From the NCBI RefSeq assembly GCF_050320075.1, contig NZ_CP190018.1: DNA of 64,000 nt; one strand, 5' to 3'. Of the stretch, positions 40,169 to 42,732 are shown in pieces. The translations under genes were made by a program, and so were the position numbers. The notes under the pieces were generated by a model that saw only the letters and a list, made by a program, of their open reading frames with translations, did not search any database and was not told the origin of the DNA. Source of the stretch: Escherichia coli (GTDB lineage: Bacteria; Pseudomonadota; Gammaproteobacteria; Enterobacterales; Enterobacteriaceae). Numbering within the stretch: the first letter of the stretch is position 1; each line of letters opens with the position of its first letter.

Positions 40169-40576
40169 TTAGTTGCCCAGACCGCGACCGGCGTCTTTCT
40201 CTTCGATTAACTCAATTTTGTAACCGTCCGGATCTTCCACAAACGCGATAACCGTAGTACCGCCTTTTACCGGACCCGCTTCACGGGTGACGTTACCCCC
40301 GTTTTGACGGATTTTTTCGCACGCTTCAGCGGCGTTATCAACGCTAAGCGCGATGTGACCATAAGCAGTGCCGAGTTCGTATTTATCCACGCCCCAGTTG
40401 TAGGTCAGTTCAATCACCGCTTCTTCGGTTTCCGGGCCGTAGCCAACAAACGCCAGTGAGTATTTGTATTCCGGGTTTTCGCTGGTACGCAGCAGTTTCA
40501 TGCCCAGCACTTTGGTATAAAAATCGATGGAGCGTTGCAAATCGCCAACGCGCAGCATGGTATGAAGAAGACGCAT
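40169..40576 (-). CDS. gloA: glyoxalase I (lactoylglutathione lyase), 135 aa
   Basis: [30 protein letters not shown]... Confidence 0.95.
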
Positions 40577-40656: not shown

Positions 40657-41754
40657 TTACAGCGTCGGGTAATCCGTGTAGCCTTCCGCACCGCCGCCAT
40701 AGAAACTTTCAGCACGCTGTGGATTAAGCTCAGCTTTGCGCTGCAAGCGGGCGACCAGATCCGGGTTCGCAATCCAGTCACGACCAAATGCCACCGCATC
40801 AATTAACCCTTTGCCAATCAGCGTTTCGGCTTTTTCTACCGTGTATGCACCTGCGCCGATAATCGGACCGTGGAAACGGGCGCGTACTTTTTCGCGGAAC
40901 GCATCAGTATACGGTTCACCTCCCGCCCAATCTGGTTCTGACATATGCAGATAAGCAATGCCGCGTTTACCCAGTTGTTCAATCAGATACAGTGCATCGG
41001 CTTCTTCATTCGGGCCGTTATCCGTGTTCTGGAAAGTACCGATTGGCGAAACGCGAATGCCAATGCGATCGGCCCCCCATTCTTCAATCCCTGCATCGAC
41101 CACTTCCAGCACCAGACGTGCGCGATTTTCCACGCTGCCGCCGTACTGATCGGTACGATGGTTTGAAGAAGGAGAAAGGAACTGATGCAGCAAATAACCA
41201 TGAGCAGAGTGGAGCTCTACCAGATCAAAACCGGCTTCACGCGCGTTAGCAATGGCCTGACGGAAATCATTGACGATACCCGGAATCTCTTCCAGTTCAA
41301 GCGCACGCGGCATGGATGTTTCAACACGGATCGCCTGACCATTTTCATCGCGCAGAGAAGTACGTGTTCCCGCGCTAAGTGCGGAAGGCGCTACCGGTGC
41401 CTGACCGCCAGGTTGCAGGCTGGCGTGAGAAATGCGTCCGGTGTGCCACAGCTGTACGGCCATATGACCATTTTCAGCATGAACGCCAGCGGTAATTTTT
41501 TTCCATGCGGCAATTTGTTCCGGACTATGGATGCCAGGTGCACCAGCATACCCTTTTGCCTGGGCAGAAATTTGCGTGGCTTCGCTAATAATCAAACCGG
41601 CACTGGCACGTTGGCGATAGTATTCCGCCATCAACGGGGTAGGGATGTCACCCGGTTCAATACTGCGCAGACGCGTCAGCGGTGCCATAAAAATACGGTT
41701 TGCCGCCGTGATCGCGCCCACTTTCAGTGGGGAATACAGTTTTTCAGATGACAT
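40657..41754 (-). CDS. nemA: N-ethylmaleimide reductase (Old Yellow Enzyme family, FMN), 365 aa
   Basis: 365-aa OYE-family protein immediately downstream of nemR. Confidence 0.95.
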
Positions 41755-41790: not shown

Positions 41791-42390
41791 CTAAACGGCA
41801 GGCGTCGCAATAATGGTTTTTACATGTGCCAGCGCGTTTTCCAGTGGCTCGGAATTGCGCGAAATTTTGGCCTGCAGATTCGCACCCAGCCATAGTGCGT
41901 AAAGCACTTGTGCCTGTTGCAGCGGTTCGCCACAAAAGGTTAAACAATGGCTATCACGGCCATTTTCCAGCGCCTGCGAGAGCAGAACGATCACGCCGCG
42001 AGCGCCTTTATCCATCGCGCTACGCATATCTTCTGACAGATCGCACACTTCGGCAGAGAGTTTTACTGTCAGGCAACCACTGATGGTTCCATGTTGGCAA
42101 AACTGGTTCAGTGTTTGCTGGTAATAAGCCAGTATGCGGTCGCGGTAGTTACCTTCGCCGGATTGCAGCAACTCAGTCAGTCGCTGGTGATATGCGGCGT
42201 AATGGCGCTCAAGCATGGCAACGCCAAACGCTTCTTTAGAGCGAAAGTAGTGATAGAAGGACCCTTTCGGCACTTCAGCAGTTTTTAGTAATTCGCTTAG
42301 CCCCATCCCGGTGAATCCACGTTGCAGGCAAAGTTGCTCGCCCGTCGCCAGGAGATGTTCGCGAGTATCATGTTCGGTGTGTTTGTTCAT
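41791..42390 (-). CDS. nemR: TetR-family electrophile-sensing repressor NemR, 199 aa
   Basis: N-terminal TetR HTH; operator palindrome directly upstream. Confidence 0.93.
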   Translation of the reverse strand: MNKHTEHDTREHLLATGEQLCLQRGFTGMGLSELLKTAEVPKGSFYHYFRSKEAFGVAMLERHYAAYHQRLTELLQSGEGNYRDRILAYYQQTLNQFCQHGTISGCLTVKLSAEVCDLSEDMRSAMDKGARGVIVLLSQALENGRDSHCLTFCGEPLQQAQVLYALWLGANLQAKISRNSEPLENALAHVKTIIATPAV

Positions 42391-42404
42391 GCGTTGGAGT
42401 GTAG

Positions 42405-42420
42405 TAGACCAGTCGGTCTA
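42405..42420. promoter_or_regulatory. NemR operator palindrome TAGACC-N4-GGTCTA
   Basis: TAGACCAGTCGGTCTA, perfect 6-bp inverted arms, 15-30 bp upstream of nemR ATG. Confidence 0.8.
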
Positions 42421-42492
42421 GTGCAAGCAAAGTTGCTACTTTGGGCATTAACAGCTTCAATAATGGTAATAATCTTATTTGAGGAGGGCGAA

Positions 42493-42732
42493 GTGGCGGA
42501 GCAATTAGAGTTTTTTCCCGTCCAGAGCCCGTGCCGGGGAATTTGCCAGTCTGACGAACGCGGGTTTTGTCGCGGCTGTTTTCGTAGTCGGGATGAGCGT
42601 TTTAACTGGAATAAAATGAGCGATGGCGAAAAACAAGAGGTGCTGCGCCTTTGTCGGCAGCGATTAATGCGCAAATTACGCGCAAATAAGCCAGCGTCAT
42701 CAGACGAACCGGAGCAACCATCACTCTTTTGA
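42493..42732 (+). CDS. ydhL: DUF1289 Cys-rich small protein YdhL, 79 aa, probable GTG start
   Basis: GTG at 42493 gives MAEQLEFFPVQSPCRGICQSDERGFCRGCFRS...; track ORF is extended upstream. Confidence 0.7.
   Translation: MAEQLEFFPVQSPCRGICQSDERGFCRGCFRSRDERFNWNKMSDGEKQEVLRLCRQRLMRKLRANKPASSDEPEQPSLF

Follow-up and report, generated by a model that had tools for sequence, protein, structure and literature searches.

The closest described system is the NemR box of the nemRA-gloA operon of Escherichia coli K-12, which we take to be exactly the 16-mer considered here. The locus and the gene order are the same, and nothing in the operator region is different. Binding and footprinting work on the K-12 box is reportedly found in Umezawa 2008, Gray 2013 and Lee 2013. 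Binding of NemR to DNA and its loss upon exposure to electrophiles or bleach are described as published results in the secondary literature, and mutants of nemR and of the operator have been shown to be derepressed. The NemR box at nemR is already known, and it is found here at its known place.

Other operators of TetR-family repressors are similar in part. The tetO operator of the TetR system of Tn10 resembles the NemR box in being a short palindrome for a single dimer of a TetR-family repressor that is encoded next to it and regulates itself, in being vacated upon induction, and in overlapping a core promoter, the overlap being predicted in the case considered here. However, tetO serves both divergent genes, whereas the NemR box overlaps a predicted promoter on the nemR side only. 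The modes of induction are also different: NemR is freed by covalent modification of its cysteines, and TetR by reversible binding of a ligand. Finally, the length of the NemR box is even, 16 bp, whereas tetO has 15 bp.

The RutR box, too, is a palindrome of 16 bp and shares the GACC...GGTC core, but it has T and A at positions 2 and 15, where the NemR box has A and T. AltR of Pantoea ananatis, a homolog of NemR, is an autoregulated cysteine-dependent repressor of the TetR family with an inverted-repeat operator on its own promoter. However, both the sequence and the spacing of the AltR operator, CAATCTAC-N6-GTAGATTG, differ from those of the NemR box, and AltR responds to thiosulfinates rather than to N-ethylmaleimide or diamide.

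We analysed the nemR locus in a stretch of 64,000 nucleotides of E. coli DNA, below called the window. The segment 41700-42800 was matched in 5425 of 5426 complete E. coli genomes, several of the matches being 100% identical. The genes were identified by Pfam and PDB matches and from the annotation that RefSeq gives for an E. coli record with 100% identity. In this record, rnt, gloA, nemA and nemR are encoded on the minus strand, and the plus strand carries ydhL, ydhF and sodC.

The gene adjoining the box, nemR (41791-42390, minus strand; annotation, Pfam, PDB 4YZE), encodes NemR itself, the TetR-family repressor that senses electrophiles and bleach. The product has 199 amino acids, contains the Pfam domains TetR_N and TetR_C_13, and matches the PDB entry 4YZE, 'HTH-type transcriptional repressor NemR', with E=4e-123. 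The sensing cysteines are present: the protein has Cys21, Cys98, Cys106, Cys116, Cys149 and Cys153, as well as Lys175, and these six cysteines and K175 are the residues published for electrophile and bleach sensing. Downstream of nemR and co-transcribed with it is nemA (40657-41754, minus strand), encoding N-ethylmaleimide reductase (annotation; NCBIfam NF007899, 764 bits). It is followed by the glyoxalase I gene gloA (40169-40576, minus strand; open reading frame and annotation), whose expression starts from the nemR promoter and is reached by read-through. Deletion of nemR raises nemA 15-fold and gloA 5-fold (PMC3739934). Divergent from nemR is ydhL (42493-42732, plus strand), which starts with GTG and encodes a 79-aa DUF1289 protein (annotation; Pfam PF06945).

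The palindrome TAGACCAGTCGGTCTA occupies exactly positions 42405-42420 of the window and reads TAGACCGACTGGTCTA on the strand of nemR. It is formed by two 6-bp arms, TAGACC and GGTCTA, which are perfect reverse complements of each other, around a 4-nt centre, AGTC, without self-complementarity. Extension of the arms is impossible, the flanking bases being G and G. Counted from the ATG of nemR, whose A is at 42390, the palindrome spans -15 to -30; on the other side, 72 nt separate it from the GTG start codon of ydhL at 42493.

Among the complete E. coli genomes, the 32-nt block around the box (42397-42428) is essentially unchanged in 5213 of 5426; an exact or near-exact copy of it is missing in about 212. 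Between K-12 and the window there is no difference from the start of nemR to the end of the palindrome, and only two bases differ further along the intergenic region; in genomes of the O157:H7/O55:H7 type the intergenic region is 100% identical to that of the window. In E. coli FDAARGOS_1258 (locus L082, 2440-2585) about 100 bp are deleted between imperfect direct repeats TGCA[G/A]GCAAAGTTGCT, which correspond to positions 42323-42338 and 42423-42438 of the window. The deletion takes out the 5' end of nemR, the predicted -10 hexamer and the operator in its entirety, and the annotation of this strain lists nemR as a pseudogene.

A scan of representative genomes for NemR produced 80 loci. For phylogenetic footprinting, 36 orthologous loci from Enterobacterales were aligned with the palindrome as the anchor; they range from Escherichia, Citrobacter, Enterobacter and Kluyvera to Yersinia, Serratia, Hafnia, Budvicia and Providencia. 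Each of the 36 has the palindrome or a sequence close to it, and in almost all of them nemA is directly downstream of nemR. The arms are nearly invariant, with 1.78 and 1.94 bits of information per position, the centre has 1.08 bits, and the flanks, taken as 14 nt on the upstream and 7 nt on the downstream side, have 0.16-0.21 bits per position. The 4-nt centre follows the pattern R-A-n-Y. In Erwinia both outermost bases have changed symmetrically, yielding CAGACC-GATC-GGTCTG. The gap between the box and the start of nemR is 14-16 nt in most orthologs; larger gaps in the tblastn results for Erwinia, Serratia and Hafnia arise where the match begins inside the gene. Fixed arms combined with a drifting centre and drifting flanks make a textbook case of a phylogenetic footprint, with the pattern of a dimer-binding site.

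A related element was found upstream of more distant NemR homologs (39-49% identity; loci L036-L081) from Burkholderia, Vibrio, Photobacterium, Thauera, Pseudomonas, Lysobacter, Rhodobacteraceae and other taxa. A box TAGAC-N5-GTCTA, mostly TAGACGACYGGTCTA, is present in 35 of 44 such loci, about 13-47 nt upstream of the start of the gene. Its length, 15 bp, is one base less than the 16 bp of the enterobacterial box. A -10-like hexamer follows the 15-bp box in many of these loci, about 7-8 nt before the ATG.

The enterobacterial box is embedded in a candidate promoter of nemR. In the window, a predicted -35 hexamer, TTGCAC (42421-42426, minus strand), directly abuts the palindrome, and a predicted -10 hexamer, TACACT (42398-42403, minus strand), lies 1 nt downstream of it and 7 nt from the ATG. 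The register is fixed among the orthologs. Upstream of the box there is an invariant TTG, within TTGCAT, TTGCAC or TTGACC, and one base downstream of the box an invariant TAnnnT, within TACACT, TAGAGT, TACAGT, TATGCT and other hexamers. In 36 of 36 orthologs the box plus one nucleotide makes the 17-bp spacer of this predicted promoter of the sigma-70 type. A generic promoter scan with a threshold of 9/12 called no site in the region 42300-42600; the pair of hexamers escaped the scan because it scores 7/12 when counted by hand.

The distance between the predicted -10 hexamer and the start codon, which is ATG in all 36 orthologs, is 6-10 nt, and the bases in this interval are not conserved. No Shine-Dalgarno box was observed before the nemR ATG in these 36 loci. 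The starts of the two divergent genes are different in this respect: an ATG without a Shine-Dalgarno box in nemR versus, in ydhL, mostly GTG with a strong GGAGG. The nemR gene looks leaderless (window 42390-42403, minus strand; loci L002-L035, L037 and L050), and transcription would start at the ATG or within a few bases of it. A published mutation in the 'ribosome binding site' of nemR fits the leaderless model poorly.

This arrangement suggests how the box most likely works. One dimer of NemR would bind two half-sites TAGAC(C), whose centres are about 10 bp apart and would thus face the same side of the helix. Since the box and one additional base fill the entire 17-bp spacer between the predicted -35 and -10 hexamers, bound NemR would be expected to exclude RNA polymerase by promoter occlusion and to hold the expression of the operon, nemR included, at a low base. 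Cysteines of NemR are modified by electrophiles, namely N-ethylmaleimide, methylglyoxal, glyoxal and quinones, and by reactive chlorine; this lowers the affinity of NemR for DNA and would free the promoter. The levels of nemR and NemA would then rise, and that of GloA would follow by read-through. The nemR hexamers themselves are predicted, and occlusion is the mechanism of repression that their position points to.

Mutations selected in laboratory evolution map to the box. Every K-12 isolate adapted to Manuka or Medihoney, which are methylglyoxal-rich honeys, has a lesion in or beside nemR (PMC8127710). Four of the isolates carry a G to A substitution at -84 from ydhL and -19 from nemR, and the remaining seven have mutations in the nemR coding region (PMC8127710). 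As K-12 and the window agree in this part, the substitution listed in Table S2 of PMC8127710 can be placed at position 42409 (minus strand). Read on the nemR strand, this base is G12 of the box, so that GGTCTA becomes GATCTA. None of the 36 orthologs has another base here, and neither does any box found upstream of the distant homologs. The simplest reading of the substitution is that it is an operator-constitutive mutation. A mutation within NemR's binding site that confers resistance to glyoxal has also been published, according to a review, and suppressor mutations in the nemR promoter have been described in published work as 'predicted to eliminate repression by NemR'. One more candidate, the 'nemR promoter' SNP of NCM4300 (1,684,163), was considered and dropped: its coordinates are assembly-specific, the strain anchors disagree by about 30 nt, and the reported 'G141S' does not match residue 141 of NemR here.

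The palindrome is very probably the NemR operator of nemR-nemA-gloA. The first-pass annotation had described a perfect palindrome with 6-bp arms at 42405-42420, lying 15-30 bp upstream of nemR and about 70 bp upstream of ydhL; the sequence matches exactly and the measured distances agree with it. Its further claim, that this is a NemR operator through which nemR-nemA-gloA is autoregulated, is supported by the literature, by the conservation of the box and by the mapped operator mutation. The exact position of the box, its deep conservation and its fixed register with the predicted promoter elements come from the present comparison.

The first-pass annotation also suggested that NemR might co-regulate ydhL. 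On this reading, the NemR-bound palindrome would be a shared bidirectional operator that also represses or sets ydhL, as tetO does for its divergent genes. The hints in favour of such a link are weak. A candidate ydhL promoter (42433-42461, plus strand) is formed by the -35 hexamer TTGCTA (42433-42438) and the -10 hexamer TTCAAT (42456-42461), and only 12 nt separate its -35 hexamer from the box. The predicted -35 hexamers of nemR and ydhL are back to back, 6 bp apart in E. coli. In the literature, over-expressed ydhL was recovered in screens for resistance to H2O2 and HOCl. Moreover, a ChIP-chip region in which RNA polymerase is raised by methylglyoxal covers 60% of ydhL, the resolution being about 0.5 kb; however, this region ends inside ydhL, short of ydhF.

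The comparison of genomes points the other way. Of the 19 genomes where ydhL is adjacent to nemR, 18 have kept the pattern TTGCnn-17-TTCAAT at a distance of 27-32 nt before the start codon of ydhL, which is itself preceded by the Shine-Dalgarno sequence GGAGG. In Escherichia albertii (L003) an insertion of about 120 bp separates the ydhL -10 hexamer from the start, the distance being 151 nt versus about 30 nt elsewhere. In all 19 genomes the box is upstream of the ydhL -35 hexamer and does not overlap the conserved core promoter, its centre being at about -55 from the predicted start of ydhL transcription. The gap between the box and the ydhL -35 hexamer takes nine different values in different genera (9, 12, 20, 23, 30, 31, 37, 38 and 53 nt), and thus there is no conserved helical phase between the box and the ydhL promoter.

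Further, ydhL is displaced or was not found within 3 kb in 16 or more of the 36 orthologous loci, all of which fully retain the box and the nemR promoter. The distance to ydhL is about 1.8-2 kb in Enterobacter, Cedecea, Erwinia, Mangrovibacter and Yersinia, whereas a search within 3 kb of nemR found no such gene in Providencia, Budvicia, Serratia and some others. In the loci of Enterobacter, Yersinia and Serratia that were examined, the place of ydhL is taken by an eptA-like phosphoethanolamine transferase gene, which has the same direction as nemR and ends just upstream of the box (L006 1324-2973, L032 1242-2885 and L034 1230-2873; NCBIfam EptA, 893 bits). As the box keeps its fixed register relative to nemR where ydhL is displaced or absent, it travels with nemR and not with ydhL. 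The open-access papers examined that mention both NemR and ydhL report no expression link between them. Given the separate ydhL promoter, the gap varying from 9 to 53 nt, and the retention of the box where ydhL is not adjacent, co-regulation of ydhL by NemR is unsupported, and we consider a shared operator unlikely. In E. coli itself, with the two predicted -35 hexamers only 6 bp apart, co-regulation keeps some small probability. If it did exist, YdhL would join the electrophile and bleach regulon.

A looser coupling, limited to Escherichia and Citrobacter, may also be imagined. Release of NemR and loading of polymerase at nemR might alter the expression of ydhL by competition for polymerase or via supercoiling. 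This, too, we regard as a doubtful proposition; if true, the DUF1289 protein YdhL would be an unrecognised lineage-specific member of the electrophile and bleach response. A further published element in this region is CTGGTTCAGTGTTTGCT, at 42103-42119 on the plus strand, antisense inside nemR. It is listed as the sigma-54 binding site IA14, pointing to ydhL at a distance of 363 bp (PMC4591121). Any transcript from this site would have to run through both the NemR box and the promoter of nemR.

Another candidate for binding to the palindrome is RutR, which would tie nemRA-gloA to the control of pyrimidine catabolism. The RutR consensus TTGACCAnnTGGTCAA specifies 14 positions, and the box agrees with it at 11 of them; among these is the A/T pair at -5/+5, which has been called the most conserved one. 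A review places RutR binding upstream of nemRA-gloA, with no regulatory effect reported, and the RutR ChIP-chip paper (PMC2475637) contains the exact 16-mer. In addition, mutations in nemR and in the nemR promoter are known from the literature to suppress the loss of RutE. However, A2 and T15, which deviate from the RutR consensus, are retained in most orthologs and in all boxes found upstream of the distant homologs; the box travels with genes of the nemR family; and the operator mutation has the same resistance phenotype as the loss of nemR. That the palindrome is mainly a RutR box is thus improbable, and the match looks like a known case of cross-recognition, the boxes of these two TetR-family proteins being similar.

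By itself, the symmetry of the element means little. The window contains 28 perfect inverted repeats of the 6-4-6 type, compared to about 15.6 expected in a random sequence. The motif TAGACCN4GGTCTA occurs in the window once, and no further copies with at most two mismatches were found there besides 42405-42420, but at least one match at this level was observed in 57 of 100 shuffles. Neither the symmetry alone nor a motif match in a single window is significant. The significance of the palindrome follows from its position, its conservation in different species and the mutational data. The least plausible reading, a chance palindrome or an RNA hairpin or terminator with no role in protein binding, is contradicted by the pattern of fixed arms with free centre and flanks, which is that of a dimer site, by the selected phenotype of a point mutation in the palindrome, by the position of the palindrome upstream of both transcripts as judged by the predicted promoters, and by the absence of a T-run after it on either strand and of a terminator call at 42405-42420 in the scan; it was ruled out by the conservation pattern together with the absent terminator call, and we assign it a vanishingly small probability.

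Since the site has been characterised before, its recovery is mainly a positive control. What the present analysis contributes to the known NemR system is modest: a comparative definition of the box together with the predicted promoter around it, reasons to place ydhL probably outside the conserved regulon, and a hint that nemR is leaderless. Leaderless mRNAs of nemR and of the wider family would, if true, be a smaller novelty. Via NemA and glyoxalase I, the NemR box is the switch for the inducible defence of E. coli against reactive electrophiles and bleach, and tolerance of methylglyoxal, glyoxal and medical honey has repeatedly been selected through changes of single bases in this box.
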